DNA of 64,000 bases. It comes from Stegostoma tigrinum (Eukaryota). The notes beneath the pieces were generated by a model. The model worked only from the letters and a program-made list of their open reading frames with translations, was not told where the DNA came from and did not search any database. This document shows, in pieces, positions 5,381 to 55,675 of the stretch; positions within the stretch are counted from its first letter, which is position 1, and the number at the start of each line of letters is the position of its first letter. The position numbers and the translations under genes are program-made. Where the stretch lies: assembly GCF_030684315.1 (NCBI RefSeq), contig NC_081362.1, positions 96,145,187 through 96,209,186 on the forward strand, in the 5' to 3' direction.

Positions 5381-5531
5381 AAAAATCTTCCCATGGCGTT
5401 CCCTGGATTTCAGACCCCAGTTTAATCATTGGCACCATTCTGAGCTTCATTGTCTTGATCTGCATTGTCCTGCTCACAGTCTTCCTTCATAAACAAAAGC
5501 TGTGTTTATCAGTAAAGGACTCCACTCAATG
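5381..5531 (+). CDS. Gene A transmembrane exon (no charged TM residue)
   Basis: Acceptor tattttacag|AA, donor TG|GTAAAT; phase 1-2. Encodes EKSSHGVPWISDPS-LIIGTILSFIVLICIVLLTVFL-HKQKLCLSVKDSTQ: 22-aa hydrophobic span plus a basic stop-transfer signal. Confidence 0.88.
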
Positions 5532-8422: not shown

Positions 8423-8466
8423 GAGCCCTGTTGAAGATCAGGATGCTGTGTATGCAACAGTAAATG
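8423..8466 (+). CDS. Gene A cytoplasmic exon 1 with ITIM-like AVYATV
   Basis: Acceptor tttatttag|G, donor G|GTAAGC; 44 nt, phase 2-1, matching the TM exon. Encodes (W)SPVEDQDAVYATVN. Confidence 0.75.
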
Positions 8467-8846
8467 GTAAGCAAGTTAGCTTATGTTTAGAGCATGTCAT
8501 TTTCTGGTTAACGCAATTTATATTCGCACATATTCACTGGAGATATATTCTTTAACAATGGAACTTGCGTATACAACACAACAATCAGAAAGCAAACCAA
8601 AACATGCTACGTCTCCATATTTATTACAGTGAGAAGAACCTTAACACACTCATTAATACAATGTTTTATCCACATTCCCATCACTCTCCATCACAGAGAC
8701 AAAAGTCTACAGAAATTACACTCCACTCTAAATCTTTCATTCTTCCAATGAACTGACACCTGCTCATTTCTTTGTTTGAACAATCAAAACCATTCCACGA
8801 CTTTTCTCTGAATCCAGTTGCATGGATCTATCACTATTCCAATGGC

Positions 8847-10660: not shown

Positions 10661-10709
10661 CCTGGTATTTCTGAGAAAAATAATGAGTGATGTTTCTGTT
10701 TGATTCCAG

Positions 10710-10832
10710 CTGGCTGAAGGGGAATGTCATTATGCTGAGGTTCACTTTCACCCACAAGGAGCCAACCGGCCGACAGTGACAGCTGCTGAAAGTAACTCGG
10801 AGTACGCAGTTGTAAAACGGGCAAGAAACTGA
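10710..10832 (+). CDS. Gene A terminal coding exon with tandem ITIM-like motifs (CHYAEV, SEYAVV)
   Basis: Acceptor tgtttgattccag|C, phase 0. Encodes LAEGECHYAEVHFHPQGANRPTVTAAESNSEYAVVKRARN followed by TGA at 10830-10832. Confidence 0.82.
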   Translation: MAEGECHYAEVHFHPQGANRPTVTAAESNSEYAVVKRARN

Positions 10833-10965
10833 AGTTCGACAAGACCCTTTCAGTCTGCAGCAAAGAGCAGTCAACAGCAACTCACTTGAACAGAACCATC
10901 TCGGCTTCTTCGCATTCACCCAGATTCAGGCTTCCTCACCAACAACTGTCCCATGTCCATATATT

Positions 10966-11168
10966 CCCAGACCCTGAGATTACTGAGTACTCAGGCCCTC
11001 CCAGACCCTGAGATTACTGGGCACTCAGACCCTCCCAGGCCCTGAGATTACTGGGCACTCAGACCCTCCCAGACCCTGAGATTATTGGGCACTCAGGCTC
11101 TCCCAGACCCTGAGATTACTGGGCACTCAGACCCTCCCAGACCCTGAGATTACTGGGCACTCAGACCC
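10966..11168 (+). repeat. 34-bp tandem repeat, six copies, in the presumed 3'UTR of gene A
   Basis: Unit CCCAGACCCTGAGATTACTGGGCACTCAGACCCT starting at 10966, 11000, 11034, 11068, 11102 and 11136. Confidence 0.95.
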
Positions 11169-11479
11169 ACTCAGACAGTGTGCAGCTCAGCATGGGAGTG
11201 GAAGGTGCAGACTCTGACTGAGATTATTTGGATCACACTGACCTCTGCTGCTACCTCTAGCATTGTGCAGATCAACAACAGGGTCATTGTGGGAACTGCT
11301 TGAATTCCGAGTTTCCTCCAGGCCAGCCCATCCTGATTCGGAATTTCAGCCTTTCCTTCGTAAGCACTGGGTCTGGATTTAGGAATTCCTCAGTAAAAAG
11401 CCAGCTCTGGGCCAATGGACAAAGCTGACCTTGATTGGGATGAAGGGAATGGGGGTAGTTTACTGATTTGGACAGAGAA

Positions 11480-13065: not shown

Positions 13066-13589
13066 GAATCAATGACTGTATGGCTCCTCTGTTCTGAGGA
13101 AGGATATTACTGGCTGGATATTCCGAATGAGGCTTGGTGAGACTCATTTCAGGAGAGACATTAATTATTTATTTGGGGCAAGTTCCTCACAATCAGTGAC
13201 TTAAACATCAAGAACTCACATGTTTGCTCCAACTCAGTAAATGTTCAAATATTTATTTAAAAATCGCTGGGCCAAAACCCCTCCTCTTTCTAACAACAAC
13301 TGGAAATTTGAGATTAGTGTATATTCAGTAAAGTGACAGCAAAATTTTTCTCAAGTGAGGAAATGAACAAATTTTATCACCAAATGAGGAATGCAACATC
13401 AAAATAAAAATTCCAAAAATCTGATCAAAAAACAGAAATTGCTGGAGAAACTAAGCAGGTCTGGCAGCATTTGCAGAGAGAAACAGAGTTAATGTTTCCG
13501 AGACCAGTGTGACTCTGTTTCAGAAATTAAATGATTAGGTCTGAAGCAGAGACTGAAAGGGTAGGTGACGATGGAGAAATGGGATGGGT

Positions 13590-14690
13590 TGGGGGGCAGT
13601 GGGCAGTGAGACCGCAGCAGGCGAGGGGGCAGTGGGTGATGAGAGCAGAAATGATGACAGGGCAGTGGGTGGTGAGAATGTGGCCAGTGAGAGGGCAGTG
13701 GGCAGTTAGAGTGGGGTCGGTGAGGTGGCAGTAGGTGGTGAGAACAGGTCTGGTGAGGGGCCAGTGGTTGATAAGAGTGGGGATGGTGAGTGGGCAGTGG
13801 ACAGTGAAAGCAGGGCTGGTGAGGGGGCTGTAGGTGATGAGAGCGGGGCAGGTGAGGCAGCAGCAGTGGGCAGTGAAAGCAGGGTTGGTGAGGGGGCTGT
13901 AGGTGATGAGAGCGGGGCAGGTGAGGCAGCAGCAGTGGGCAGTGAAAGCAGGGTTGGTGAGGGGACAGTGGGTGGTGACAGTGGGGCTGGTCAGGGGGGC
14001 AGCTGTTGGCAGTGAGTGCCGGTTGGTGAGGTGGTGAAGGCGGTGAGAATGGGACCAGTGAGACAGTGCGGCGGTGAGTGTGGGGTTGGTGAGGCGGTGA
14101 CGGTGGTGAGAGTGGGGCCGGTGAGGCGGTGATGGCGGTGAGTGCGGGGCCGGTGAGGCGGTGACGGCGGTGAGTGTGGGGCCGGTGAGGTGGTGACGGC
14201 GGTGAGTGCGGGGCCGGTGAGGCGGTGACGGCAGTGAGTGCAGGGCCGGTGAGGCGGTGACAGCGGTGAGCGTGGGACCGGTGAGGTGGTGACGGCGGTG
14301 AGTGCAGGGCTGGTGAGGCGGTGACGGTGGTGAGAGCGGGGCCGGTGAGGCAGTGACGGCGGTGAGACTGGGACTAGTGAGGCAGTGACGACGGTGAGTG
14401 CCAGATGATGAGGCGGTGACGGCAGGGCTGATGAGGCAGTGACGGTGGTGAGAGCAGGGCCGGTGAGGCAGTGACGGTGGTGAGAGCGGGGCCGGTGAGG
14501 CAGTGACGACGGTGAGACTGGGACTAGTGAGGCAGTGACGACGGTGAGTGCCAGATGATGAGGCGGTGACGGCAGGGCTGATGAGGCAGTGACGGCAGTG
14601 AGTGCGGGGCCGGTGAGGCGATGACGGTGGTGACAGCGGGGCCGTTGAAGTGGTGAGAGTGGGCCTTTCACATGGTGGCGGTGATGGCCT
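13590..14690 (+). repeat. G-rich minisatellite (~32-bp unit with higher-order repeats)
   Basis: Unit ~GGTGAGGCGGTGACGGCGGTGAGTGCGGGGCC; 69-bp period at 13803/13872/13941 and 150-bp period at 14341/14491. Confidence 0.92.
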
Positions 14691-15373
14691 CCTGTGTGTC
14701 CGAGAGATTGTGGCAGCCCCTGTACCGTGGTGGAGATGTGACTCTGAGAATCTGAGATCTGGACTTTTCTTTTTTTTCTTGCTTACCTTTTGGCTCTATT
14801 AAAACATTTAATTGTTGTTTTTGTAACCATGTGGGTGCCAGTCATTGGCAACTTTGTGCACTTTTCACTGTACTTATGTATTCCTATACTTAGTACATGT
14901 GACAATTAGATCAATCTAAATCTTAATGAAATTTTAATAGCAACCTGTGGGTGTGTGTTGTACCAGAGGCTGGGCCTTGATCCTGGACCTTGTGGTCTAC
15001 AGTTAGGGACACTGCCAGTGAGTCACAGCACCTCATCCTGACATTGTTTATATGTCTCACGGGCAGCAGCTTCTCTAAAACAAGTGGCTCGAACCATTGT
15101 TCATTTCAGTTGCTGTTTGTTACAATAACACATGAACACACAGTGAGCTACGGTGATGTTGTAGGTGAAAATTTTGTCACTTCAAATATGCACAAGCTGG
15201 CAGAAGCTCCTGGCAATAGTTTTAAATTAATTAGCTCAATAACAGAGACACACAGTTTATTGGTCAGATAAATAGATTTTTATTCAGCAAATTGTTATGT
15301 CAGTGAAATCAAGCATAGATTAAAATACCCAGATTAAAAATACCACAGATTAAAATACACAGAATAAAATTTG

Positions 15374-27376: not shown

Positions 27377-27428
27377 ATGCTCCTTATTATTCTCCTTGTG
27401 ACCACATTGACTCTCTCTGCTGATGCTG
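27377..27428 (+). CDS. Gene B leader (signal peptide) exon
   Basis: ATG in ccaagATGc context; encodes MLLIILLVTTLTLSADA; donor G|GTGAGT, phase 1, compatible with the V exon at 33742. Confidence 0.8.
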
Positions 27429-33741: not shown

Positions 33742-34077
33742 CAGAGAGACCCATCCTGCTCCAGTCTCCAGAAGTGCACAGTGTGATGGAAGGCGACTCT
33801 GTCAGATTTCAGTGTAAACTGGAGAATGCTAATGTCAGCAAACTCATTGTTACTTGGTACAAGAATAGATCCAGCAAACAGGAGCTGATAACATACGATG
33901 CACAGGGCCATGTCTACCGTCACCCTGGAGTGACAGCACGTTTCCAACCTTCCAGGGATATCTCCAATAACAGCTACATCCTAACCATCACAAATGTGGA
34001 AGCTAGTGACAATGCTGTCTATGTCTGTAGTGTGCGGGGATCGAGCTACGGGGCAGGAACCCAGCTGAACATAACCG
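33742..34077 (+). CDS. Gene B Ig V-type (germline VJ) domain exon
   Basis: Acceptor cccctgacag|CAG (NAGNAG), donor G|GTAAGT; 336 nt, phase 1-1. Encodes AERPILLQSP...RFQC...VTWY...DNAVYVCSVRGSSYGAGTQLNIT; paralog of the gene A domains. Confidence 0.92.
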
Positions 34078-36233: not shown

Positions 36234-36330
36234 ACAGGAGTAGGTGTTCTCCTCTAACAATTACCCCCAAAATACTCAGAAAAATTCACCTTTCCTGTCC
36301 TAATCTATGAAAAGAAAACAAATCTCTGAT

Positions 36331-39300
36331 ACAAGATAATAAAATGTGAGGCTGGATGAACACAGCAGCCCCAGCAGCATCTCAGGAGCACAAAAGCTGA
36401 CGTTTTGGGCCGAGACCCTTCATCAGAGAGGGGGATGGGGTGAGGGTTCTGGAATAAATAGGGACAGAAGGGGAGGCGGACCGAAAATGGAGAGAAAAGA
36501 AGATAGGTGGAGAGGAGAGTATAGGTGGGGAGGTAGGGAGGGGATAGGTCCGTCCAGCGCAGATGGACAGGTCAAGGAGGTGGGATGAGGTTAGTAGGTA
36601 GGAGATGGAGGTGCGGCTTGGTGTGGAAGGAAGGGATGGGTGAGGGGAAGAACAGATTAGGGAGGCAGAGACAGGTTGGACTGGTTTTGGGATGCAGTGG
36701 GTGGAGGGGAAGAGCTGGGCTGGTTGTGTGGTGCAGTGGGGGGAGGGGACGAACTGGGCTGGTTTTGGGGTGCGGTGGGGGAAGGGGAGATTTTGAAGCT
36801 GGTGAAGTCCACATTGATAACATTGGGCTGCAGGGTTCCCAAGCGGAATATGAGTTGCTGTTCCTGCAACCTTTGGGTGGCATCATTGTGGCACTGCAGG
36901 AGGCCCATGATGGACATGTCGTCTAAAGAATGGGAGGGGGACTGGAAATGGTTTGCGACTGGGAGGTGCAGTTCTTTATTGCGAACCGAGCGGAGGTGTT
37001 CTGCAAAGCGGTCCCCAAGCCTCCGCTTGGTTTCCCCAATGTAGATGAAGCCGCACCGGGTACAATGGATGCAGTATGCCACATTGGCAGATGTGCAGGT
37101 GAACCTCTGCTCAATATGGAGAGTCATCTTGGGGCCTGGGATAGGGGTGAGGGAGGAGGTGTGGGGGCAAGTGTAGCATTTCCTGCGGTTGTAGGGGAAG
37201 GTGCTGGGTGTGGTGGGGTTGGAGGGCAGTGTGGAGCAAACAAGGGAGTCACGGAGAGAGTGGTCTCTCCGGAAAGCAGACAGGGGTGGGGATGGAAAAA
37301 TGTCTTGGGTGTTGGGGTCGGATTGTAGATGGCGGAAGTGTCGGAGGATGATGCGTTGTATCCGGAGGTTGGTGGGGTGGTGTGTGAGAACGAGGAGGAT
37401 CCTCTTTGGGCGGTTGTGGTGAGGGTGGGGTGTGAGGGATGTGTTGCGGGAAATGCGGGAGACGCGGTCAAGGGCGTTCTCGACCACTGTGGGGGGAAAG
37501 TTGCGGTCCTTGAAGAACGTGGACATCTGGGATGTGCGGGAGTGGCATGCCTCATCATGGGAGCAGATGCGGCGGAGGCGGAGGAATTGGGAATAGGGGA
37601 TGGAATTTTTGCAGGAGGGTGGGTGGGCGGAGGTGTATTCTAGGTAGCTGTGGGAGTCGGTGGGCTTGAAATGGACATCAGTTACAAGCCCTTTGGTCCT
37701 GGAACTCCCTACCTACGTCCGTGACACCACCCACACCCTGCACTTCCTCCAGGACTTCCAATTCCCTGGCCCCCAACACCTCATTTTCACCATGAACGTC
37801 CAGTCCCTATACACCTGTATTCCGCATGCAGATGGCCTCAAGGCCCTCCGCTTTTCCCTGTCCTGCAGGCCCAACCAGTCCCCCTCCACTGACACCCCCA
37901 TCCGCAGAGCCGAACCCGTCCTCACCCTCAACAACTTCTCTTTCGATTCCTCCCACTTCCTACAGACAAAGGGGGTGACCATGGGCACCAGCATGGGCCC
38001 CAGCTATGCCTGCCTCTTTGTAGGTTACGTGGAACATTCCCTCTTCCGCACCTACACAGGCCCCAAACCCCACCTCTTCCTCCGTTACATTGATGAATGT
38101 ATCGGCGCCGCCTCTTGCTCCCCAGAGGAGCTCGAACAGTTCATTCACTTCACCAACACCTTCCACCCCAACCTTCAGTTCACCTGGGCCATGTCCAGCA
38201 CATCCCTCACCTTCCTGGACCTCTCAGTCACCATCTCAGGCAACCAGCTTGTAACTGATGTCCATTTCAAGCCCACCGACTCCCACAGCTCCCTAGGATA
38301 CACCTCCTCCCACCCACCCTCCTGCAAAAATTCCATCCTCTATTCCTAATTCCTCCGCCTCCGCCGCATCTGCTCCCACAATGAGGCATTCCACTCCCGC
38401 ACATTCCAGATGTCCACGTTCTTCAAGGACCGCAACTTTCCCCCCACAGTGGTCGAGAACACCCTTGACCGCGTCTCCCGCATTTCCCACAACACATCCC
38501 TCACACCCCGCCCCCACCACAACCGCACAAAGAGGATCCTCCTCGTTCTCACACACCACCCCACCAACCTCCGGATACAACGCATCATCCTCCGACACTT
38601 CTGCCATCTACAATCTGACCCCACCACCCAAGACATTTTTCCATCCACTCCCGTGTCTGCTTTCCAGAGAGACCACTCTCTCCGTGTTTCCCTTGTTTGC
38701 TCCACACTGCCCTCCAACCCCACCACACCCGACATCTTCCCCTGCAACCGCAGGAAATGCTACACTTGCCCCCACACCTCCTCCCTCACCCCTATCCCAG
38801 GCACCAAGATGACTTTCCATATTAAGCAGAGGTTCACCTGCACATCTGCCAATGTGGTGTACTGTATCCATTGTACCCGGTGTGGCTTCCACATTGGGGA
38901 AACCAAGCGGCAGCTTGGGGACCGCTTTGCAGAACACCTCCGCTCGGTTCGCAATAAACAACTGCACCTCCCAGTCGCAAACCATTTCCAGTCCCCCTCC
39001 CATTCTTTAGATGACATGTCCATCATGGGCCTCCTGCAGTGCCACAATGATGCCACCCAAAGGTTGCAGGAACAGCAACTCATATTCCACTTGGGAACCC
39101 TGCAGCCCAATGTTATCAATGTGGACTTCACCAGCTCCAAAATCTCCCCTTCCCCCACCGCACCCCAAAACCAGCCCAGTTCGTCCCCTCCCCCCACTGC
39201 ACCACACAACCAGCCCAGCTCTTCCCCTCCACCCACTGCATCCCAAAACCAGTCCAACCTGTCTCTGCCTCCCTAATCTGTTCTTCCCCTCACCCATCCC

Positions 39301-39637
39301 TTCCTCCCACCCCAAGCCGCACCTCCATCTCCTACCTACTAACCTCATCCCACCTCCTTGACCTGTCCATCTGCGCTGGACGGACCTATCCCCTCCCTAC
39401 CTCCCCACCTATATTCTCCTCTCCACCTATCTTCTTTTCTCTCCATCTTCGGTCCGCCTCCCCCTCTCTCCCTATTTATTCCAGAACCCTCACCCCATCC
39501 CCCTCTCTGATGAAGGGTCTAGGCCCGACACGTCAGCTTTTGTGCTTCTGAGATGCTGCTGGGGCTGCTGTGTTCATCCAGCCTCACATTTTATTATCTT
39601 GGATTCTCCAGCATCTGCAGTTCCCATTATCACTGAT
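36331..39637. mobile_element. Penelope-like retroelement (RT + GIY-YIG endonuclease), 5'-truncated, with an inverted 3' duplication
   Basis: + strand ORFs 37660-38349 (RT: GVTMGTSMGPSYA, FLRYIDE) and 38410-39276 (NVVYCIHCTRCGFHIGETKR); inverted copy in ORF 36657-37526 (IYIGETKRRLGDRFAEH). 13-bp TSD ACAAATCTCTGAT at 36318-36330 and 39638-39650. Confidence 0.93.
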
Positions 39638-40740: not shown

Positions 40741-41029
40741 CAATTCTATCTCCCTGCATTCAATTCATGAATTCACTACACAACTTTGTAACAGACAACG
40801 ATTGCCCAACCTCACCTCTAAGACCCAAAAGAAAGACGGTTGTACTTGTTGTAGGGCAGTCATCTCCACCCCAGGACATCTTTGCAGGAGTTCCGCAGGA
40901 CAGTGTAGTTGGGCCAACCATCTTCACTGCTTCATCTTCCCTCCACCATAAGATCAGATGTCCCATCAGTGAGTGATCAGGGTTGGTTTAGATCTTTTTC
41001 CTGTGGTTGACCTGTTTCTGTGTTTCCAG

Positions 41030-41164
41030 TCCCTGCAGTGGGAATGAACAGAGAGCTGTGGATAGTCTGGATCAGCGTGGGAGCTGCCCTGGGAGCTACT
41101 CTCATCGCTGGAGCTGCTCTTCTCTTCTGTATCAGATGCACTCGGTCTGGAAAACAGTCATCTT
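41030..41164 (+). CDS. Gene B transmembrane exon with GxxxG and juxtamembrane CxxC
   Basis: Acceptor tgtgtttccag|TC, donor T|GTAGGT; 135 nt, phase 1-1. Encodes VPAVGMNRE-LWIVWISVGAALGATLIAGAALLF-CIRCTRSGKQSS. Confidence 0.82.
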
Positions 41165-42304
41165 GTAGGTGGAAATCAATCTTTCACTGAAACGGCCACA
41201 TTAGGAAGAGTTTTCCTCATGATTGAAGGTTGGGGTGGGCAAAGAGAGGAATGTTCAAAATACTCAGAGCAGCCTTTGTGGAGAAAGAGAGTTCAAATCA
41301 GTTTTTCATCAAAAATGTGAGGCATTAGAGATGGAGAGTTTTTCACAGAAGTACATTACCCAGGGGAAAGACTGAAGCTGTCTTGTCTGCTCAATTTCCA
41401 GCTGCATTTTCTGATTTTGTTTCAGATTTCCCAAATCTACAGCATTTTAACATCCACTCTCTCAACCACTGATGCCCAAAACCAACAGTGTGTCCCTTCT
41501 ATAAGACACACCACACAAATTCACCAAAGATCTTCACACAGCATCTTCTAAACACATGGCCACTTCCACCTGGAAGGACAAGAGCAGCAGATACATGGGA
41601 ACACTACACCCTGCAATTCCCCTTCAAGCCAGTCACCATCCTGACTCAGAAATATTTCATTGTTCCTTCAGAGTCACTGGGTCAAAATCCTGGAATTCCC
41701 TCCCTAAGGGCATTGAGGATGAACCCACAGCACATGGGCTGCAGCAGTTCAAGAAGGCAGCTCATTACCACCTTCAAGGTGTAGCTAAGGACAGGCAACA
41801 AACGATGGCCTTGCCAGTAACAGCTACTTCCCATGAGTGAATGAAAAAAGTGTTAATTTTAATTATTTGGTGCCAATTGCCCTCAATAGACAAGGTCTCT
41901 TTTCCTAGGGAGTTGGATTTCAGGACTAGGGGGTATAACTGTCAGGTGAGAGAAGAAAGATTTTAAAAAGACACGGGGGCAATTTCTTTGGCACAGAGAA
42001 TGGTTTGTGTGTGGAATGAACTCCCAGAGGAAGTGGCAGATGTGAATACAATTGCAACGTTTAAAAGACATCCAAAAAAGTACATGAATAAGAAGTGTCT
42101 GGAGGGATATGGGTCAGGTGCTGGCAGGTGGGACCGGTTTAGGTTGGAATTATATTTGGCAAGGACTGGTTGGACCAAAAGGGCTGTTTCCATGCTGTAC
42201 GACTCGATGGCTAATTGAGTTTGACAGTCTTTCCAGAAGGTTGTTATTTCTGTCCTTCTGTGTAGCCTCAGTCTTGGTGACATTTGATCTTTTTTTACTT
42301 CCAG

Positions 42305-42378
42305 CTTCACCTGTCTGTCCTGCTGATAATTTGCCAGCCCCAGATAATGAACCCGTCTCTTTCTCTGGAGACACACAG
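42305..42378 (+). CDS. Gene B cytoplasmic linker exon
   Basis: Acceptor ctttttttacttccag|CT, donor CAG|GTTGGT; 74 nt, phase 1-0. Encodes SSPVCPADNLPAPDNEPVSFSGDTQ. Confidence 0.68.
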
Positions 42379-45324
42379 GTTGGTTGAGTTGTTTTGTGCA
42401 AGGTGTTTCTCAGCTCATTTGGCTCAATGTTTCAGATGGGAAGAAGGACAATGCCAATGGTGTTCGTACTCGGTGGACCAGCTTTTGGCATTTTCCAGAG
42501 GCTATTCTTCCTGTCTTGCCCATGCTTGAAGAATGGTGTTCCTCACACTGTGTTGAACTGATTGCCTCCCTATAATGGAGGCAGACACAGTTATATGACT
42601 TTGAAAGAAGCAGGATTTGATCTGTGGGGAGACATTCACTCTCATGTTGCAATGTTGCGCTGAGCCACAAGGTCACACAGTCCAGGCCACTGGACAAATA
42701 GACAGCTTCAGCAAGTGCACCCAACAGAGTTGCAGCATTTTTCCAAAAGCAGAATGACTTCTGGCTGTGGGATGTCGGGTGACAGAACAGGAGTGTAATC
42801 AAACCAAGAAGTGCAGACGCTGTCAATCTGAAACAAAAACAGTAACTGTTGGAGAAACTCACAGGCCTGGCAGCAGCTGTGGAAAGAAGAACAGAGTTCT
42901 CTGATGACATGCTCTCAGAAGGGGTCACTGGACCCAAAATGTTAACACTGTTTTCACTCCAAAGATGCTGCCAGACCTGTGAGTTTCACCAACTCTCTGT
43001 TTTTGGTTGTTAAAGCAGATGTGTTGGGGAGTATTTCTAAATATTCAAACATCATGCAGCCTTTGTTTTCCAATTGTGGGAAGATAATGGCTACTGATAA
43101 ACGAGGAGGCCGACTCAACGATACAGAGTTTCAGGCAGCATGTAGACTATTCTAATCATGTGATAATGTCAATGCTGCCCACAGCAATGCTGAAAAAACT
43201 GCAGATGCTGCAAATCAAGAAGTTTCTGGAAAAGCTCAGCATCTGTGAAGAAAAAAAGATCAGAGTTAGCATGTTGGGCCTGGTGACTGTTCCTCAGAAC
43301 ATGTTGCCCAATGTTGTAGTGAGGCAAGCAGGTCCCGGAGAGGCAATGTCTTTGGTCTGGTAATCCAGAGCTGCTGGTGACATCTAAATGTTATTCATAA
43401 AATCACAAAGAGAAAATTAGTCTCAGTGATGGTAATAATTGTTATCAAATTTTGTAAAAACCCATCTGTTTACTAATGCCCTTCAGGGAAGAAAATCTGC
43501 TGTCCTTACCCAGTCTGGCTCACATGTGACCCCAGGTCATATCGATGGGGTTAGCTTTTAATGGCCCTATGAAATGGCCAAGTGAGACTCTCAGTTCGAA
43601 GTTACTTTGAGAGTGGGAAACAAATGCTGGTCATTTCAGTGATTCCCTCATAACATGCAGGAAAATATTTTTTAAAAAGATCATCTGCGCATAGAATTTA
43701 CGGCAAGACTTAAGCATCAAATGAGGCATTGAGATAACCAAGTTAAGGCAAATCTTTCTCCGGTTGCACCTCTCCATGAGTCACAGAATAAATGTTAGTG
43801 CTTTATCTGGTTTGTGATATTATGTTGGGTTTAAAACAGAAAGTTCCATCAATCAGGTTCTTTGATAAACAACAATGTTATTGAATAATTATGAAACATG
43901 ATATATTTGGCAAAGATGAAATGATTTTCTCACACAGTTAAAAATATGAAAGTATAAACATTTACTTCTCTATATACACCAAAACACACAACCATTTTCA
44001 GGAAGAAAAGGGAGCAAAATTCACTTCTCTGTCTGAAGAGATTCATGTGAGCAAAAATAAACAAGCATTTCAGGCTGATATGGCTCATTGTTGAAGATAT
44101 GTATATTTTTTAATTCATAAATGGGATGGGGGCGTTACTGACAGGTCCCAGTCAATACCCAAAGAACAACATCAGCTGTGGGTCTAGAGTCACATCAATA
44201 CCAGACCAAGATTCCTTCTCTTAAGGAATTTAGTGAACCAGACAATTTTCTCCCACAAAAATCAATTCGTTTCTTAATTCCTGTTTTATTTTTCTTTATT
44301 CATTCAAGGGATGAGGGTGTTGCTCTCCAAGCAACATTTATTGCCCATCCCGAATTGCCCAGTTGGCAATTCAAAGTCAACCACATTGCTGTGGGTCTGG
44401 AATCACATGTCGGCCAGACCAGGTAAAGATGGCAGTTTCCTTCCCTAAAGGACATCAGTGAACCAGGTGGGTTTTTCTGACAATCGACAATGGATTCATT
44501 AGATTGTCAATTCCAGATATTTATTGAACTCAAATTCCACTATCTGCCGTTGTGAAATTCAAACTCGGGTCCCCAGAACATTATCTGGGTCTCTGGATTA
44601 ACAGTCCAGCAATAATACTATGAGGACTTTGCCTTCCCCACGAAAGTGTCTGGCCTTCTGTCTTATGTAGACAGCTGTCCTCAAATAGAGGCAGTTGTCT
44701 GTGGGATTTTTGCAAAGCCCAGTTTGCTGAGGAAAGGCAGCATTGAGGATTCCTCCAGTCATTTTACAAGGGAGTAATGAAGATTCACAACAAGAAGGTC
44801 TACTAAAATCCAGTGAGCTGATCTGAGCTCTCCTTCCCTTCAGACAGCTGAGCAGTAGTTACTCTGGATGCAAACGTGACCCAGAAAGCAGGCCAAGGGG
44901 ATAGTAGGGTCTTCCGTCAAGAAACAATGGGATTCACAGGATGCTTTGTTGAAAAGAATGTCACTGTTTTTTTCATTGACCCCTTTAAAACAAAACACTG
45001 CCCAATGGTGCCGCCTCAATTTCACAAGAACTATTATACAGGAAGCTCCCAGTGGGAAAAAGTCTTTGGTCTTGTGCACCATGAGTAAACGACTCAGCAG
45101 GTTCAGGGGAATTGAGTGGAGTTGAGCACATCAAAGACCAGCCCAAGCAAAGCTAGTTTCTCTGAGAGGGAATGCTACATTCCATCACTAAAAAGGACAA
45201 ATTTGAAAACAAAACCTTCTTTCAATATGGAGTCAGCTGCTACAGGAATGTCTCTGCTTTCAACCCCAATTCCCTGAACTGAACACCGGGTACTCAGAGA
45301 TACCCTGCTTTGAGAGACCTGCTG

Positions 45325-46480
45325 AACATAGAAACATCAAAAATAGGAGCAGGAGTAGGCCATTCAGCCCTTCGAGTCTGCTCTACCATTCAGTATAATC
45401 ATGGCTGATCATCCAATCTAGTGCCCTGCTCCTTCATTCTCCTCATACACTTTGATCCCTTTAGTTCGAAGAACTATATCCAACTCTTTCTTGAAAACAT
45501 ACAATGCTTTAGCTTCAGTTACTTTCTGTGGCGAAGAATTCCACAGGCTTCCCAGTCTCTGGGTGAAGACATTTCTCCTCATCTCCATCCAAAACGGCAA
45601 ACTGTTTAACCTTAAAATTTGACCTGCGGCCCCAGACTTTGTCATCAGGAACATCCTTCATGTATTTACCCGATCTATTCCTGTGGCTTTTATAGGCTTC
45701 TATGAGATCTCCCATCCTTCTTCTAAACTCCAGTGAATATAATCCCAACTGATGCAGCGCTTGCTGCACATCAGTTCTGCCACCCCAGGAATTAGTCCAG
45801 TAATCCTTTGCTGCTCTCCCTCATTACCAGAACATCCTTCCTCAGATAAAGAGATGAAAGCTATTCTCAATATTGCAGGTATGATCTTACTAAGGCCCTG
45901 TAAAGTTTCAGCAAGACATTCCTGCTCCTGCACTCAAACTCTCTCGCTATGGCGGCCAACATCCCATTTCCCTTCTTCACAGCCTGCTCCTCTGACGTGC
46001 TTCATTTCAGTGTCTGATGTACAAGGACCCCCCAGGACTTGTTGCACCTCCCCCTTTCCCAATCTATCGCCATTCACATCATAACATCTTCTTGTTTATG
46101 ATTCCAAAATAACTTCACATTGATTCACGTGAAACTGTATCTGCTATGCATTTGCCCATTTTCTTAACTTGGCCAAATCACACTGAAGTCATTTGCCCAC
46201 TTTATAGATCTTTCCCTATCTCTACACAAAATATTTGTGTCTTTCTCACTGCCTTTCCATCGCTTTTTTTCCGTTGTCTGCAAATTTGGCTGCAGTAGGT
46301 TCACCTCCTTCCTCTCAGCCATAGGTCCCCAACCTGAAAAAGAATCCCTTACTCCCTCTCGCTATTTTTGGTCCATTTGCCAGTTCTATATTCACACCAA
46401 CACACTATCTCCAACATGGCGGGCTCTTATCTTATGACTTAACCTTTTACTGGGTACCTTGTTGATCATGCTCTGGAAGT
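45325..46480 (-). mobile_element. CR1 fragment (duplicated at ~50595-51730)
   Basis: - strand LGLYSLEFRR and DFQSMINKVP; CR1 3'UTR at the left end. Confidence 0.8.
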
Positions 46481-46572
46481 CCAACACCTGATATTTGATT
46501 AGAGCGAGGTTAAAATATTGAGTATTACGCTCCTCAACATCACCTTGCTGATTTCTTCCCTTTTTTTCGAAG

Positions 46573-46956
46573 GTTCCCCAAAAGGCTAAGAAGTTGATAA
46601 AAACCCAACCAGACACCTGTAATTCACCAAATGATGGAAACATATTCATTTCAAGCCAAAACCCGACATACCACAGCATAGAGGCAAAGTCTTACAGCAA
46701 CAGCCAAATGCAGGGGACTGAAACGGTTCCAGGAGAATGCAGGAATCACAGAGAACTGAAGAAACAGCAACGGAAATTTGCAAAACACAATCCCCAGGGT
46801 CAGTCGGCACCAAAGTCTCGCCGGAAATCGACACTGAGGCGGTTCTTGGCCTTTGAGAATCAAACACCAGGAATGAGCAACCAGATCACACTGACACCAA
46901 CTGATGAAGGAATCTATGCAAATCGCAGTCAGATTAGCCACACTCTCCACAAAAAG
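46573..46956 (+). CDS. Gene B large cytoplasmic exon, copy 1 (PTYHSI, SYSN, IYAN motifs)
   Basis: Acceptor ttccctttttttcgaag|G, donor AAG|GTGATG; 384 nt, phase 0-0. Open, hydrophilic, non-repeat sequence sitting between LINE fragments. Confidence 0.68.
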
Positions 46957-47029
46957 GTGATGGTTTTGTGTTGATACAGCTTTCTCCATGGCACTGTATT
47001 GCCGCTTCGTATGGAATCATGTGATTGCA

Positions 47030-48285
47030 CAATAGAATCGGGTGGAGTCAGCACAGCTTCATCAAGAGGAGATCATGCCTGAAAAATCTCACAGGAAGTA
47101 ATGAGCAAGTTAGACTAAGGAGAACTAGTGGACGCAATATATTTGCATTTGCAGAAGGCCTTTGAAGAGGTGCCGCAAAAGAGGCTGCAAAATAAGATAA
47201 GAGACCATGGTGTTAGTGGCAAGGAACTGACATGGAGAAGGGATTGGCTGACTGGAAGAAGGCAGAGAGAGGTGACAAAAAGGTCTTTTCAGGTTGCCAT
47301 CCAGACACTAGTGGAGTTCTGCAGGCGTCAATGTTGGAATCACAGCTATTCATGTTATACGTTAATAATCTGAACAATGGATCTGCGGACATTTTTGCTA
47401 CGTTTGCCAATGACACAAAGCTAGCTGGGAGGAGAGGTAGTGTTGAGGAAGTGAGGAGATTGCAGAAGGACCTGGACAGCTTGGGGAGTAGGCAAAGACA
47501 TGTAAGATGGGAAATAATGTGAGTGAGAGTGAAGTTGTGCACTTTGATAATAAGAATAAAGGAGTGAAATATTTTTTAAATAGGAAAGGTTTCAGAAATC
47601 TGAGGTACAAGGGGACATTGAGGGCTACATTAGGATTCCATGAAGGTTAACATAATTTTAGTTGGAGTTGAGGAAAAAAAATACACTGCGAGCTTCCATT
47701 TCAAGTGGGCTGGAATACAAGAGCCCAGATGTAATACTGAGGATATATAAAGCTCCTCATATGGAATGTTGTGAGAAGTTTTGGACCCTGTATTCAGGGA
47801 AGGATGCTTTAGCCTTGGAGGGAGTCCAGGGGGCATTTACAAAAATGATCTGGGAGATACAGAGCCTGTCATATGAGGAGCAGTTAAAGGCTTCAGGTCT
47901 CTAGTTGATGGAGTTTTGAAGGATGAGGGAGACTTGAGTAATACTTGCAGAAAACTGACAGGCCTGGATAGAGTGGATATGGGAAAGACGTTTCCGCTAG
48001 GAGGACAGAGTCGGAACTGAGGACACCGCCTCAGATTGAAGTGTCGAGCCTTGAGAACTGAGATGTGGAGGAACATCTTCAGCCACAGGGTGGTAAATCT
48101 ATGGGATTTATTGTCACAAAGAGCTATGAAGGTAAAATCACTGAGTGCATTTAAGGGGGAGATAGATAAGTTATTGGATCAATGATTACAGGGAGAAGAA
48201 TGGAGTTGAAAAATATTTCTGCCATGATTGAATGGTAGAATGGATTTGATGGGCCAAACGGCCCAATTCTGTTCTTATATCTTAT
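47030..48285 (+). mobile_element. CR1 fragment (duplicated at ~52280-53190)
   Basis: DAIYLHLQKAFEEVP, FANDTKLAG; CR1 3'UTR at the right end. Confidence 0.85.
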
Positions 48286-48440
48286 GTTCCTCTTTCCTCA
48301 CGATATTATTAATATCTTCATCCTCATTAAATGACAGTCATTATCAGCCCAGTCGTTTCGGGCTCCATTCATGCAGAGCAGGACTCTGCATCCTATCGGC
48401 GCCCATCATCTGGCTCCAACCATTTGTTTGTAAAATACAG

Positions 48441-48482
48441 GAATCCAGTGATCTAGAAGCAGACTCCAACTCCACATCTGTG
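48441..48482 (+). CDS. Gene B small cytoplasmic exon, copy 1 (ESSDLEADSNSTSV)
   Basis: Acceptor aaatacag|G, donor GTG|GTAATT; 42 nt. Only phase 0 is open in this copy. Confidence 0.6.
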
Positions 48483-48643
48483 GTAATTATTTCATTGATC
48501 ATGGTATTTCAAACCAAATCACTGATTGGTATCAAGATATTAATTACACTCAATGTAATGACTAAAACCAAAACAATGCCTCATCAAACCTAATTACTCT
48601 ATCAAAGTGGAATCTTAATCTATACATTGACCTTTTGTTTCAG

Positions 48644-48658
48644 AATTTTGAGCCATGA
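48644..48658 (+). CDS. Gene B candidate stop-containing exon, copy 1 (NFEP*)
   Basis: Acceptor ttttgtttcag|A; phase 0 reads AAT TTT GAG CCA TGA. A donor AAG|GTATGT follows at 48679/48680. Confidence 0.45.
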   Translation, partial: NFEP

Positions 48659-51600
48659 TATTAAGTCAGTGAACAAAAGGTATGTTGCCACTAAACCCTA
48701 CCTGCTAAGAGTTAGCCTTTATCCCTGAGTCATGGAGTTTAATGATCTGCAGCCAGCGCCCTGAGAAATTCACAGAATTTTTGTTTGCTTTATGTGAGGG
48801 AGAAGGTTTATGAAGATTACTTTGATGACAAAGCTCAGGAAGAGTTTTGAAAGGAGCTTCCGGACCAGCATGGACTGTTGGGGCTGAATTTCCTGTTTCG
48901 ATGCTATATTTCCCCTCCAATATGCAATGTAACATCCCCACAGTGGGGACAAATAACTTTCTCATGATGACATGGTCTGAGCTCTGCTTGGCCACAATCA
49001 AACACATCTCAAGCCTCGAATTCCAGGGCTTCTCATAGTAAATGGTTGCAATTTAATTATTGAGACAACATGACTATAAAGAGACCTATTCACTCCAATG
49101 GAATAGTTACTTGCTGAATAGCTGGAGTGAAGATGTTTAGAGTTATGTTTTGAGGCTGTGGTTCACCTGTGGTACTCATTTTCACAGAGGGCTGTGGAGG
49201 ATAAGTCATAGAGTGTCTTAATCACAGAGATTGACAGGTTCTTGATTAGAAAGGGAATCAACAGTTACATGGAGAAGGCAGGAGAATGAGGTTGAGAAAC
49301 ACATCAGTCGTGATCGACTGGGAAAGCAGTCTCGATTGGCTGAATGGCTTAATTATTCTCATTTATCTGATGGGAATGTGGAAATATCGGTGTAATTAGG
49401 GACCCCCGCAGGTGACTATTAGCAGAAACCTCATTGTTGAATGAATAAGAATAACAGTCTCTGCTGCTGACACATGGGAACACAACATACACCACCCTCA
49501 CTCACCAATCATTGTACCCAGTGAAGATGCCGCATCAACAATGAATCGTCCCCTCTCCTTTCGGCTGACATTTGTTTTCCATCCCTCATTAGCCTTGAAC
49601 TGAAGGTCTCACTTGACCATTTCAGGCGATAGTTGAGAAGCACCCACATTCTTGTGGGTGTGGAGTTATCTTTAGGCCAGATCATCTCAGGACAGCTGAA
49701 TCTCTTCATTAGTAAACCTGATGGGATAGCAAGAACTGCAGATGCTGGAGTCAGAGACAACACAGTGTAGAGCTGGAGGAACACAGCAGGTCAGGCAGCA
49801 TCAGAAGAGCAGGTAAGTTGAGGTTTCGCGTCAGGACCTTTTTCAAAAATGAGGAGGGTGAAGAGAGCTGGGAAATAAATAGAGAGGATGCGTAGAGTTG
49901 GGAAAGACCGGTGGAATGGTCATTGGTGAATGCAGGTCAGGAGTGGTGGGGATTGGCCAGTGGGATGGGTGGGGTGGTAGGTGGGAGAAAAGATGGACAG
50001 TTTGTGTCAGGTCAAAGATGTGGGGATGAGAGGGAGGATTGAACATTGGTTAAGTATGTTGTCGAAGTGTTTCATGGCACATGAGATTACCAGAGGGTTG
50101 CAGTGGAAGAGAGATCAATTGAGGTGTTTCCTGAGGGGGCAAAACAACTTTTTCAAGATGGCCATCCTTAGATGAGGCTTCATTGTGGAGTTATAACTTA
50201 CTCAGGGATAGTAAGAACTGCAGATGTTGGAAACAGAGAACACACAGTGTGGAGCTAGAGGAACACGGCAGGCCAGGCAGGATCAGAGGAGTAGATAAGT
50301 TGTCTCTGACTCTAGCCCTCCAGTTCCACACTGTGTTTGGTCTTGTGGACCATGAATAAGAGGTATCACAGCTTCAGAGAAATTGATTGGGATAGAGCAC
50401 AGCAGATCAAGACCAAGGAAAGCTAATTTCTCTCAGAGAGAATGCAGCATTCCATCACCAAAACGGACAAGTTTGAAAACAAAATCTTCTTTCAATGTGG
50501 AGTCAGCTGCTACAGAATGTCTCTCAGTCCAAACCCCATTCCCTTGACTGTCTACTGGCCTCTCAGACTGACACTGCCCTGTGAGAACTATTTGACATGG
50601 AAACATCAAAAATAGGAGGAGGACTAGGCCATTCAGCCCTTCGAGTCTGCTCAGCCATTCAATATAATCATGGCTGATCATCTAACCCAGTCCCTCCTCC
50701 TTCATTCTCCCCATTCCCTTGATCCTTTTAGCCTGAAGGACTGTATCTAACTCTTTCTTGAAAACTTACAATACTTTAGCTTCAACTGCTTTCAGTGGCA
50801 GAGAATTCCACAGAGTCCTCATTTTCTGAGTGAAGACAGTTCTCACCCCCTAAATGGCAGACTGCTTATCCTTCATCTTTGACCTGTGGTTCTGGACTTT
50901 GTCATCAGGAACATCCTTCATGTATTTATCCTGTCTATTCCCGTAGGTTTTATAGATTTCTATGAGATCCCCCGTCCTTCTTCCAAACTCCAGTGAATAT
51001 AATCTTAACTAATGCAATTGCTTCCTGCACGTCAGTTCTGCCATCCCAAGAATTAGTTCGGTAATCTTTTGCTGCACTCCCTCATTACCAGAACATCCTT
51101 CCAGTGTTAAGGAGACCAAAACTCGTCTCAATATTGCAGATGTAGTCTTAATAAGATACTGTAAAATTTCTGAAATATATCCCTGCTGCGGTACTCGAGC
51201 TGTCTCACGATGACGACCAACATCCCACTTATTTTCCACGCTGACTGCTGCCTACGTGCTTTCTTTCAGTGTTTGGTGTGCAAGGATCCCCAGGTCTTGT
51301 TGCACCTTCCCCTTTCCCAATCGATCAGCATTCAGATAATAATCTGTCTCCTTGGTTTGGTTAACCTCAACTTGATCCACATGAAACTGTATTTATCACG
51401 TACTTGTCCATTTTCTTAACTTGTCCAAATCACACTGAAGGCATCTGCCCACTTTATTGATCTTTCTGTATCTCTCTGTAAACTACTTCTGTCCTTCTCA
51501 CAACCTGCCTTTCCATCCCTTTTAATGTTGTCTGCAAAATTTGGCTGCAGTAGGTTCACATCCTTCCTCTCAGCCATCAGTCCCCAACCTGAAAAAGAAC

Positions 51601-51822
51601 CCCTTACTCCCTCTCGCTATTTTTGGTCCATTTGCCAGTTCACTAGCCACATCAATGTACTAGCTTCGACACGGTGGTCTCTTATGACTTAACTTTTTAC
51701 TGGGTACCTTGTTGATCACGCTCTGGAAGTCCAACACCTGATATTTGATTAGAGCGAGGTTAAAATATTGAGTATTACGCTCCTCAACATGACCTTGCTG
51801 ATTTCTTCCCTTTTTTTCGAAG

Positions 51823-52206
51823 GTTCCCCAAAAGGCTAAGAAGTTGAAAAAAACCCAACCAGACACCTGTAATTCACCAAATGATGGAAACACATTCATT
51901 TCAAGCCAAAACCCGACATACCACCGCATAGAGGCAAAGTCTTACAGCAACAGCCAAATGCAGGGGACTGAAACGGTTCCAGGAGAATGCAGGAATCACA
52001 GAGAACTGAAGAAACAGCAACGGAAAATTGCAAAACACAATCCCCAGGGTCAGTTGGCACCAAAGTCTCGCCGGCAATCGACACTGAGACGGTTCTTGGC
52101 CTTTGAGAATCAAACACCAGGAATGAGCAACCAGAGCACACTGACACCAACTGATGAAGGAATCTATGCAAATCGCAGTCAGATTAGCCACACTCTCCAC
52201 AAAAAG
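51823..52206 (+). CDS. Gene B large cytoplasmic exon, copy 2 (PTYHRI, SYSN, IYAN)
   Basis: Same splice sites and length as 46573-46956, offset by 5250 bp; 8 nt differences. Confidence 0.68.
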
Positions 52207-53341
52207 GTGATGGATTTGTGTTGATACAGCTTTCTCCATGGCACTGTATTGCCGCTTCGTATGGAATCATGTGATGGCACAATAGAATCAGGCAGAGTCA
52301 GGCCTGCTTCATCAAGAGGAGATCATGCTTGACGAAGGTGGAAGGCCAGGTAGTGTTGAGGAAGTGGGGAGGGATCAGAAGGACCTGGACAGTGAGGGGA
52401 GTAGACAAAGGTGTGTAAGATTGAAAATAATGTGAGAGTGAGTGAAGTTATGCACTTTGATAATCAGACTAAAGGAGTGAACTATTTTCAAAAGGGAAAG
52501 GTTTCAGAAATCTGAAGCACAAAGTGATATGTGAGGGCTATATTAGGATTCTCTTCAGTTTAACATAATTTTCATTGTGTTTTAAGACAAATATAATGTT
52601 AACTTCCATTTCAAGAGGGCTTGAATACAAGAGCCCTGATGTTAAATTGAGGTTCAATAAAGCTCTAGTGAGACCTCGTTTTGAACGTTGTGAGCAGTTT
52701 TGGTCCCTGTATTCAGGGAAGGATGTTCTGGCCTTGGACGGAGTCCAGGGAAGGCTTAAAAAATAGTCTGGGAGATATGGAGCTTGTCTATGAGGAGGAA
52801 CTGAAGCCTCTGGGTCTGTTGTTGATGGAGGCTCGAAGGGTGAGGGAGGAATTTGACTGAAACTTGCAGGACACTGACAGGTCTTGATAGTGTTGAGAAA
52901 GGGAAGATGTTTCCTTGAAGAGACTAGACTCAGAACTGTGGTCACGACCCTTTATAACTGAGATGTGGAGGAACATCTTCAGCCAGAGGTTGGTAACTAT
53001 ATGTGGCGCTTTGTTACAAAGGGCGAAAAAGGCAAAGTCACTGAGTGGGTTGTAGAGAGAGAGATTGATAAGTCTTGAGGCAAAGTTTAGAGAGAGAGAA
53101 ATGGGGTTGAAAAACATATCAGCCATGATTGAATGGGAGAACTGACCAGATAGGCAGAATGTCCTAATTCTGCTCCGATATCTAATGCTCCTGCTTCCTT
53201 ATGGTCTTATTCACACCTTCATCCTTGCTACACAACAGTCATTATCAGTCCAGTCATTTCTGGCTCCCTTCATGTAGAGCAGGACTCTGAATCCTAAAGG
53301 CATCCATTATCTGGTTTTAACTGTTTGTTTTTAAATTACAG

Positions 53342-53383
53342 GAATCCAGTGACCTACAAACAGACTCCAACTCAACATATGTG
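53342..53383 (+). CDS. Gene B small cytoplasmic exon, copy 2 (ESSDLQTDSNSTYV)
   Basis: Acceptor aaattacag|G, donor GTG|GTAATT; 42 nt, phase 0-0. Confidence 0.62.
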
Positions 53384-53543
53384 GTAATTATTTCATTGAT
53401 CATGATATTTCAAACTAAATCACTGTTTAGTGCCAAGACAGTAATTACACTCAACATAATGCTAAAACCAAGACAATGCCTTTTTAAGTCTAACTCCCCA
53501 ATCAAAGTGAAATCTTAATCTATGCATTGACCTATTGTTTCAG

Positions 53544-53564
53544 AATTTGGATCCACGACATTAA
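53544..53564 (+). CDS. Gene B candidate stop-containing exon, copy 2 (NLDPRH*), completing STYV|NL
   Basis: Acceptor ttgtttcag|A; reads AAT TTG GAT CCA CGA CAT TAA. A donor AAG|GTACTT follows at 53579/53580. Confidence 0.55.
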   Translation, partial: NLDPRH

Positions 53565-54604
53565 GTCAGTGAACAAAAGGTACTTTGCTGTGGAACACTA
53601 TCTACTAAGAGTGAACCTTGATCACTGAGTCATGGAGTTTAATGATCTGCAGCCGGCGCTCTGAGAAATTCACAGAACTTCTGTTTGCTTCATGTGAGGG
53701 AGAAGGCTTATGAAGATTATGTTGATGAACCAACTTGGGAGTAGTTTTGAAAGGAACTTCCAGACCAGCATGGACTGGTGGGGCTGAATGGCCTGTTTCT
53801 GTGCCATATTTTCCTGCAATATGCAATGTAACATTCCCATGTGACTTTCTCCTGATTACATTGCCTGAGCTCTGCATATTCACAATCAATCACACCTGAA
53901 GCTTCGAATTCCAGGGCTTCTCATAGTAAATGGTTCCAATTTACCAAACTAGGCATTTAGTTATTGAGACAATATGACTCTAAAGAGACATACTCATTTC
54001 AATAGAACAGTTACTTGCTGAACAACTGGAGTGAATTTGTTTAGAATTCTGTTTGGAAACTGTGTTTCATCCCTGGGACTCATTTCCACTGAGGGCTGTA
54101 AAGGCCAACTCATAGATTGTCTTAAAGACAGAGATTGACAGGTTCTTGATTAGAAAGGGAATCAACAGTTACATGGAGAAGGCAGGAGAATGGTGTTGAG
54201 AAACATATCAGCTATGATCAAATTGTGGAACAGTCTCCATTGGCCGAATGGCCTAATTCTGTTCGTTTATCTTATGGGAATGTGGAACCCCCTCAAGTGA
54301 CTATCAGCAGAAGCCTCATTGTTGAACAGATAAAAATATACACAACATACTCCCCCTCCTCACCTCAGCCAATCATTGTATCATTGTACCTAGTGATGCA
54401 GCATCAAAGGTGAATCTTCCCCTCTCCTCTCAGGCTGACATTTGTTGTCCATCCCTCATTCGCCTTGAACTGAGTATCTCACATGACCATTTCAGAAGGT
54501 GGTTGAGAGGCAAACACATTGTTGTGGGTCTGGAGTCACATTTACATCAGATTATCTCAGGACAGCTGGGTCTCTTCCCTGAAGCGCGCTCGTAAACCAG
54601 ATGG

Positions 54605-55675
54605 GATAGCAGGAACTGCAGATGCTGGAGCCAGAGACAACACAGTGTAGAGCAGAAGGGACACAGCAGGTCAGGGAGCAGCAGACAAGCTGGTAAGTTA
54701 ATGCTTGGTGTCAAGACCCTTTTTCAAAAATGGGAAGGGTGGAAGTACCTTGAAATAAATAGAGAGGAGGGATGGGGCTGGGGAAGTGAAGTGTGATAGT
54801 GATAGGTGAGTGCAGGTTGGGAGTGGTGGGTTGGTCAGTGGGATGGGTGGGATGGATAGGAGGGAGACAAGTTGAACGACTTGTGTCAGGTCAAAGATGT
54901 GCGGATGAGAGGGAGGGTTGAACGTGGGTTAAGTATGTGGTTCAAGATTTTCAGGGAGAGGAGATTACCAGAGGGTTGCAGTGGGAGGCAAATTCACTGA
55001 GTTCTTTCTTCAGGCAGGTGGAGAACTTCTTCAGGGTGAATATCTTTGGAAGAGGCTTCACTGTGGGGTTGTAACTCACTCAGAGATAGTAAGAACTGCA
55101 GATGCTGGAGACAGAGACAACATAGTGTAGAGCTGGAGCAGCACAGATGCCAGGCAAGATCAGAGGATCAGGGCTGTTTTCTCTAACTCCAGCCGTCCAG
55201 GTTAACACTGTTGTCTCTGACTCCAGCATCTGCAGTTCTTACTATCTCTGAGTAAGGTATAACACCACTGCGAAGCCTCTTCCAAAATTGACGACCCTGA
55301 AGAAATTGTCCTCCTTCTGGCAAGATTTCTAGATCTCTCTTCCACTTCAAGCCTCTGGTAATCTCTTTGACCATATATTTAACCCATGACCAACCCTCCC
55401 TCTCATCCCTGCCTCCATGACCTGACACAACCTGTCCATCTTCTCTCCCACCTATCTGCCCCATCCAGCCCACTGACCAACCCACACCACTCCCTAACTG
55501 CTCTCACCTAGCACTATCCCACCTACCTACCCCAGCCCATTCCACCCCTCTCTATTTATTTCCCTGCTCCCTTCCCCCTCCCCATTTCTGAACAAGGTTC
55601 CTGACCTGAAGTGTCCACTTTCCTGCTCTTCTGATGCTGTCTGGTCTGCTGTGCTCCTCCGGTTCCACACTGTTA
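54605..55675. mobile_element. Cluster of older Penelope-like 3' ends in both orientations
   Basis: Repeated gaactgcagatgctggag terminal motif and its reverse complement; paralogous cluster at 49725-50335. Confidence 0.65.

Follow-up and report, generated by a model that had tools for sequence, protein, structure and literature searches.

The stretch of DNA analysed here, a window of 64,000 nucleotides from the forward strand of contig NC_081362.1 of the zebra shark Stegostoma tigrinum (RefSeq assembly GCF_030684315.1, positions 96,145,187 to 96,209,186), contains the gene LOC125454654 for a single-V receptor of the immunoglobulin (Ig) superfamily, which holds two tandem copies of a set of three tail exons. 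Using the 384-nt exon of this set as a query, we retrieved one protein at 100% identity, XP_048391606.1 (P0001), which was rebuilt exactly from eight exons of the window, from the leader through the V, transmembrane, 74-nt and both 384-nt exons to the 42-nt and 36-nt exons of copy 2. This protein is a computational NCBI prediction and represents the single isoform found for LOC125454654. It leaves out the 42- and 36-nt exons of copy 1 and uses the junction 46956>51823, which is absent from the junctions listed in an earlier note on this DNA. The exons and the duplicated region are arranged as follows (window positions):

27377..27428, + strand: leader (signal peptide) exon, 52 nt (tblastn of P0001; exon chain)
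33742..34077, + strand: the one Ig V-set exon, ending in a joined J-like GxGT (Pfam V-set, E 1.5e-15; exon chain)
41030..41164, + strand: transmembrane exon, membrane stretch without a charged residue (exon chain)
42305..42378, + strand: juxtamembrane exon, 74 nt, single copy, without Y-x-N-I (exon chain, orthologue comparison)
45062..50334, + strand: duplicated unit, copy 1 (self-BLAST; alignment)
46430..47039, + strand: high-identity tract (partner ~51680-52289), attributed to probable gene conversion (log-likelihood ratio, lnLR, 77.8 versus permutations)
46573..46956, + strand: 384-nt tail exon, copy 1 (128 aa; NPTY, YSN, IYAN), included in P0001
48441..48482, + strand: 42-nt tail exon, copy 1, with a Ser codon in place of Tyr and intact splice sites, left out of P0001
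48644..48679, + strand: 36-nt exon, copy 1, early TGA at 48656, donor-like site downstream, skipped in P0001
50335..55211, + strand: duplicated unit, copy 2, right end inside the loop of a palindromic repeat (self-BLAST; alignment)
51823..52206, + strand: 384-nt tail exon, copy 2, included in P0001
53342..53383, + strand: 42-nt tail exon, copy 2, conserved Tyr retained (sequence comparison; exon chain)
53544..53579, + strand: 36-nt last coding exon, copy 2, Asn at Y+2, Leu at Y+3, stop at 53562-53564 (sequence comparison)

The earlier note had proposed that a unit of ~5.25 kb with three tail exons is duplicated and that the units meet at 50337/50338. Self-BLAST and alignment bear out both points: two tandem units of about this size lie at 45062-50334 and 50335-55211, each with exons of 384, 42 and 36 nt, and the breakpoint between them maps to ~50334-50337, within 3 nt of the proposed position. 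Over the aligned blocks (45062-47082 versus 50333-52332, and 47423-50334 versus 52336-55211), the copies differ at 816 of 4812 columns, and copy 2 is without ~337 nt of a long interspersed nuclear element (LINE) fragment. All duplicated exons have AG..GT boundaries, and the 384- and 42-nt exons are indeed phase 0-0, as claimed before, so they could be chained or skipped in frame. Exactly two cassette copies were found in the assembly; neither the genome searches nor the 20 kb downstream contained a third one.

We checked the duplication on the DNA level with short-read contigs from two samples of one study (four runs). The copy 1 sequence from 47243 to 49045 was recovered with 0 differences in three of the four runs and in shorter pieces in the fourth, the copy 2 sequence at ~53110-53800 with 0-1 differences in all four, and the short-read depth over each copy resembled that of the single-copy flanks. 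That the duplication or the high-identity tract within it is an assembly artefact would fit the facts that none of the listed short-read contigs bridges the unit junction and that one assembly was examined, but 19% divergence outside the tract, separate short-read contigs for each copy in two samples at single-copy-like depth and 13 copy-specific differences retained within the tract make this explanation extremely improbable. The duplication is confirmed as genuine and old. Its right end in copy 2 lies within a palindromic dispersed repeat, at the loop, and 2 nt of the junction are shared with both ends; a hairpin-related break followed by microhomology repair is a possible origin. The palindromic repeat itself spans ~1 kb (54600-55673), and many of its genomic copies are inverted pairs ~50 nt apart.

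The two copies are unevenly diverged, which the earlier note had missed together with the tyrosine motifs of both 384-nt exons. Within a tract of 610 nt at 46430-47039, the copies show 13 differences (2.1%), as opposed to 803 of 4202 positions (19.1%) elsewhere, and the lnLR of 77.8 for this tract compares with 12.2 for the largest of 40 permutations. The tract enters the upstream intron by 143 nt (3 differences) and the downstream intron by 83 nt (2 differences), and the 384-nt exons, which are ~98% identical, differ at eight positions, seven of them non-synonymous. Because the introns are as similar as the exon and nearly all exon differences change the protein, gene conversion rather than protein constraint likely re-homogenised the 384-nt exon and its splice sites after the duplication; a sharp tract that reaches into introns, beyond protein constraint, is what ectopic conversion leaves. 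Because acceptor and donor both fall inside the tract, the splice signals of the two 384-nt exons are the same. Applying a synonymous divergence (dS) of 0.061-0.111 per ~50 million years (My) between whale and zebra shark, as given in the accessible part of PMC13100897, we estimate very roughly ~90-180 My for the duplication and 10-18 My for the tract. These ages lean old, because the locus lies 3 Mb from the contig end, where faster rates are reported in the same text. Given the estimated age, the whale shark would be expected to share the duplication. The preprint bioRxiv 2022.10.17.512540, PMC8529718 and PMC4079198 served, as far as their available text goes, as divergence background only.

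To judge the tail motifs, we compared P0001 with its orthologues in five species, namely two bamboo sharks, the white shark, the basking shark and the sawshark, which supplied 10 proteins. Every one of them has a single big tail exon, and the doubled exon occurs in none (0/10). Each 384-nt exon carries two YxN sites (YSN and IYAN in copy 1, where NPTY is also present), which brings P0001 to a total of five, compared with two to four in the five orthologue tails counted. In IYAN, the residues Y, A and N are invariant in all eight aligned rows (identity to the first row 38-95%), and the second YxN of the big exon is also present in white and basking shark. Tyr and Asn+2 are thus kept while the remaining tail diverges, as expected of Grb2 docking sites: pYxNx is the consensus of the Grb2 SH2 domain, and the +3 residue is immaterial in DNAM-1 (PMC4647266, available text). 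No whale-shark orthologue was present among the 29 + 4 matches, and a near-length search with the 384-nt exon gave no result either; the whale-shark protein P0022 belongs to a paralogue at C11:97.3 Mb, C11 being the contig of LOC125454654. The sawshark set includes a partial model, P0046, which matches P0045 at 132 of 143 residues (92%) from the boundary of the big tail exon onwards and is without a transmembrane part; it may represent a further tail cassette of the same gene, or else another gene with a faulty model. A match of only 6/7 residues (E 0.15) hints at a possible LINE origin of the P0046 N-terminus.

The end of the tail is equally informative. The sequence Y-x-N-F-D-P terminates nine of the 10 orthologous proteins, and the remaining one, P0031, retains the Tyr with another last exon. 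The 36-nt exon is read in phase 0 in the Chiloscyllium, Carcharodon and Cetorhinus models, which largely settles its frame, previously regarded as uncertain. The earlier note had read the copy-2 end as fitting both an ITIM (immunoreceptor tyrosine-based inhibitory motif) and a Grb2 YVN site, and the end does match the consensus (S/I/V/L)xYxx(I/V/L) (defined in the available part of PMC12151841) to the letter, assembled across the junction 53383>53544. None of the orthologues has I, V or L following Y-x-N at this site, Phe occupying Y+3 in 9/10, and the consensus is matched at one of the seven tail tyrosines of P0001, so that neither a tandem ITIM nor an ITIM with an immunoreceptor tyrosine-based switch motif (ITSM) is present. 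Judged by the orthologues, the Leu on which the ITIM match depends is derived, a change of the zebra shark, and Asn+2 is the conserved feature; the conserved terminal element thus appears to be a Grb2-type YxN site, with predicted binding.

If the copy-2 end nevertheless acted as an ITIM recruiting SHP-1/2 or SHIP, the choice of the last exon would flip the receptor between inhibitory and non-inhibitory output. Such an opposing switch could appeal to the literal match, to the change from Phe to Leu as a possible new gain and to a YxN site that fits the ITIM consensus in the juxtamembrane exon of Carcharodon and Cetorhinus. We consider it highly unlikely with a single site, a derived Leu next to a conserved Asn+2 and cluster paralogues that already have ITIM and ITSM tails. 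The juxtamembrane Y-x-N-I is lost in zebra and bamboo sharks and present in Carcharodon, Cetorhinus, Pristiophorus and the paralogues.

None of five sequences checked has a charged residue in the transmembrane helix, as would be needed for coupling to adaptors of the DAP12/FcRgamma type, so signalling likely runs through the receptor's own tail. This tail is long and predicted to be disordered, with a predicted local distance difference test (pLDDT) score below 50 for residues 170-311 of the bamboo-shark orthologue. Attempts to name the family by PDB sequence and fold searches, the latter with a weak model (mean pLDDT 51), retrieved nothing but VpreB and the V domains of antibodies.

The explanation we favour, and to which we give about an even chance of being correct, starts from what was observed, namely the duplication with its high-identity tract and the conserved motifs. 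An old tandem duplication would have copied the three tail exons of a single-V receptor gene, and a later event, likely gene conversion, would have made the 384-nt exons and their splice sites alike again. Both 384-nt exons are then likely chained in the transcript, giving one tail with five instead of three YxN sites, while the small end exons of copy 1 are probably skipped and decaying. Src-family kinases are expected to phosphorylate the YxN tyrosines and Grb2 to dock there, and more of these sites would strengthen a co-stimulatory or adaptor-like output by bridging via Grb2-SOS. A model of LAT-family adaptors has Grb2-SOS1 bridging and aggregation depend on how many Grb2 sites there are (PMC3291652, available text). 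A transcript in which the stop exon of copy 1 is spliced into copy 2 would have its stop 405 nt ahead of the next junction. The usual rule for nonsense-mediated decay sets the limit at 50-55 nt, and such a transcript is a likely target because it exceeds this distance.

The tail forms are predicted to carry two YxN sites (copy 1 only), three (copy 2 only) or five (doubled). Because each of them retains Grb2-type sites, any switch between them would change the dose of the signal and not its sign. Of the outputs suggested before, graded ones are therefore plausible and opposing ones unsupported; likewise, the short tail supposed to be without the motif does lack the terminal Tyr, but keeps two YxN sites from its 384-nt exon. 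It is also conceivable, though rather doubtful, that sharks tune signal strength more generally by duplicating whole cassettes, with gene conversion preserving the use of zebra-shark isoforms that have two, three or five Grb2-type sites, and with an independent duplication in the sawshark. If true, this would provide a natural valency series for studying the thresholds of Grb2-SOS clustering.

Several observations weigh against the proposed single long tail. The NCBI model with both 384-nt exons is a prediction on a contig as long as this one and is not independent support. A search for RNA runs over 45500-55200 returned none, which is silent on expression. A tract of 610 nt placed at random would include the exon together with both splice sites ~4% of the time, so its position is suggestive only and hints weakly that exon similarity sustained conversion. 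The rates of non-synonymous and synonymous change since the conversion (pN 0.023, pS 0.012) reveal no purifying selection on either 384-nt copy, although the counts are small. The other points concern the small end exons of copy 1. As reported earlier, copy 1 has TCT at 48477 where copy 2 has TAT at 53378, and TGA at 48656 where copy 2 has CGA at 53556. The TGA falls one codon ahead of the ancestral last Tyr, which means that two separate changes took both tyrosines out of the copy-1 end. All splice sites of these exons are intact (AG/GT), divergence over 48330-48830 is slightly lower, at 15.4% (one of seven windows tried; Fisher P 0.025), and the hexamers AGTAAA (49037/53925) and AATAAA (49874/54754) are common to both copies. 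Each of these copy-1 points fits a short end in use, and none is strong.

Taken together, they could indicate alternative last exons, where splicing and the choice of the poly(A) site set the number of Grb2 sites: the copy-1 end would yield a cassette of 146 aa with two YxN sites and no terminal Tyr, the copy-2 end a tail with three or five. The four canonical splice sites, the shared hexamers, the separate losses of both tyrosines and the lower divergence around the exons all suit this idea. Drift alone, however, is expected to leave the dinucleotides intact with P ~0.45, a change from CGA to TGA at a CpG is a common mutation, AATAAA sits inside a dispersed repeat, and the NCBI model, with one isoform found, skips the small exons of copy 1. 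A stable short form would need its own poly(A) site; the shared hexamers are candidates, but a donor-like site comes after the 36-nt exon. Searching for a 3' untranslated exon with the C-terminal extensions of the sawshark proteins gave best scores of 36-37, below the shuffled maximum of 45. Compared with the orthologue consensus, the copy-1 end has four residue changes, including the loss of Tyr and the early stop, and the copy-2 end three, including Phe to Leu and the loss of the last Tyr; the conservation of the small exons over background is not significant (P ~0.16 each). From these similar numbers, decay would explain the copy-1 end as well as design does, and we regard alternative last exons as unlikely.

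A near-neutral duplicate has a similarly low probability in our view. Here, each transcript would contain either one of the 384-nt exons together with the copy-2 end, resulting in a protein like the single-tail orthologues, and the tract would have arisen by chance. The exon differences without a sign of purifying selection, the small exons without significant conservation and the absence of a doubled exon from the orthologues would all follow from it. It has to contend with identical splice signals 4.9 kb apart, given which nothing obvious would exclude either 384-nt exon, with the inclusion of both exons in the NCBI model and with the position of the tract over the exon. The doubled tail with five YxN sites stays our preferred reading.

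Both tandem exon duplication and gene conversion are familiar processes, which in immune receptors usually concern the outer, ligand-binding domains; here they affect the signalling tail. If both 384-nt exons are used, the gene illustrates how a single step can give a receptor more docking sites for adaptors. It further illustrates that a match to the ITIM consensus in one species can mislead, since the orthologues recast the site as a conserved Grb2-type site. Our literature search found no published cases of duplicated cytoplasmic exons, nor any mention of the locus, the protein identifiers or this shark cluster in texts other than the supplements of PMC11599192 and PMC12227049, which were not covered. 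Overall, the locus shows known processes in a genuine and modestly unusual variation, and an opposing switch is not supported.

LOC125454654 belongs to a receptor cluster: 34 of the 40 V matches in the genome lie on contig C11 at 96.06-97.36 Mb, the other six on C60. In the cluster, the V exons number at least 34 and end in joined J-like sequence, several of them contain stops, and some paralogues have ITIM and ITSM tails; nearby are MCM3 (L042:82-327), the gene for an alpha subunit of a neuronal nicotinic receptor (L027, L028) and an exon with an NDK domain (L015). With ITIM/ITSM tails beside YxN tails, it looks like a paired-receptor family. The upstream neighbour gene has its leader at L007:9111-9164 and its V, transmembrane and tail exons at window positions 282-650, 2330-2770, 4490-4999, 5371-5532, 8424-8467 and 10709-10831. 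Its V exons number three, its transmembrane exon is uncharged and its tail contains AVYATV, CHYAEV and SEYAVV, the last of which fits the ITIM consensus; the gene looks like an inhibitory partner of LOC125454654. A presumed FAD-binding (flavin adenine dinucleotide) exon upstream was discarded, as the Pfam hint was below the cut-off and PDB gave no match. Downstream lies a paralogue (L009:6657-6941, L009:9338-9698, L010:5200-6099) with stops and a frameshift in its V exons and a transmembrane exon present, which is likely a pseudogene.

The region of the LOC125454654 transmembrane exon (41015-41193) shares 93% identity with its counterpart in a two-V paralogue at a distance of 1.1 Mb (L004, C11:97305887-97306065), the V exons of which are <50% identical in protein to that of LOC125454654; an exchange of the transmembrane exon between these paralogues is possible. 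The intron after the V exon contains an element at 36329-39604 with inverted terminal repeats of 1.36 kb (96% alike) and reverse-transcriptase-like and nuclease-like frames, which we take to resemble a Penelope-type retroelement. Further upstream, the window has a degenerate, GC-rich tandem repeat in which both strands contain long open frames (13530-14700), and a short tandem array (10965-11176).

The locus resembles the NITR, NILT, SIRP and XMIV/NKp30 families in its tandem arrangement of V-only receptors whose tails are of mixed type. Unlike XMIV/NKp30, it is not linked to the major histocompatibility complex (MHC), since contig C44 carries all 31 of the matches to MHC class I and the gene is on C11. 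Long and short tails of CEACAM1 and other splice forms that turn ITIM on or off involve a conserved tandem ITIM. The shark gene shares with CEACAM1 the tail exons that can be included or skipped and that bear a terminal tyrosine motif, but it has a single, lineage-specific ITIM match, and its alternative arises from a duplicated, partly degenerate cassette. CD28 and TIGIT are further receptors with sites like the immunoglobulin tail tyrosine motif (pYxNx). LOC125454654 has a single V as do CD28/CTLA4, but no proline between the second Cys and GxG, where these have the CDR3-region motifs PPP and EIP; the available text of a survey of the CD28 family lists no match to the shark V motif (PMC11599192).

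The closest likeness in signalling parts is DNAM-1/CD226, which also combines an Ig V ectodomain, an uncharged transmembrane helix and an acidic-I-Y-x-N motif in a divergent tail (PMC4647266, available text). The conserved D/E-I-Y-V/M-N motif of DNAM-1 binds Grb2 (same source), and EDIYAN or EEIYAN in the shark orthologues parallels this D/EIYV/MN. Unlike in DNAM-1, the shark tail is long, predicted to be disordered and composed of several spread YxN sites with a duplicated block; we claim no orthology, and ligand and binding are predictions only. The shark gene UrIg2 is similar in having a joined VJ exon and adjacent duplicated exons homogenised by gene conversion, but its repeats are extracellular C1 domains according to the accessible text of PMC12227049, whereas those of LOC125454654 are cytoplasmic exons of a receptor without a C domain. 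With several Grb2-type sites on a single tail, the receptor finally resembles the adaptors LAT, LAB and LAX (PMC3291652, available text), from which it differs by its full V ectodomain and by a valency that would follow the number of exons and not phosphorylation alone.

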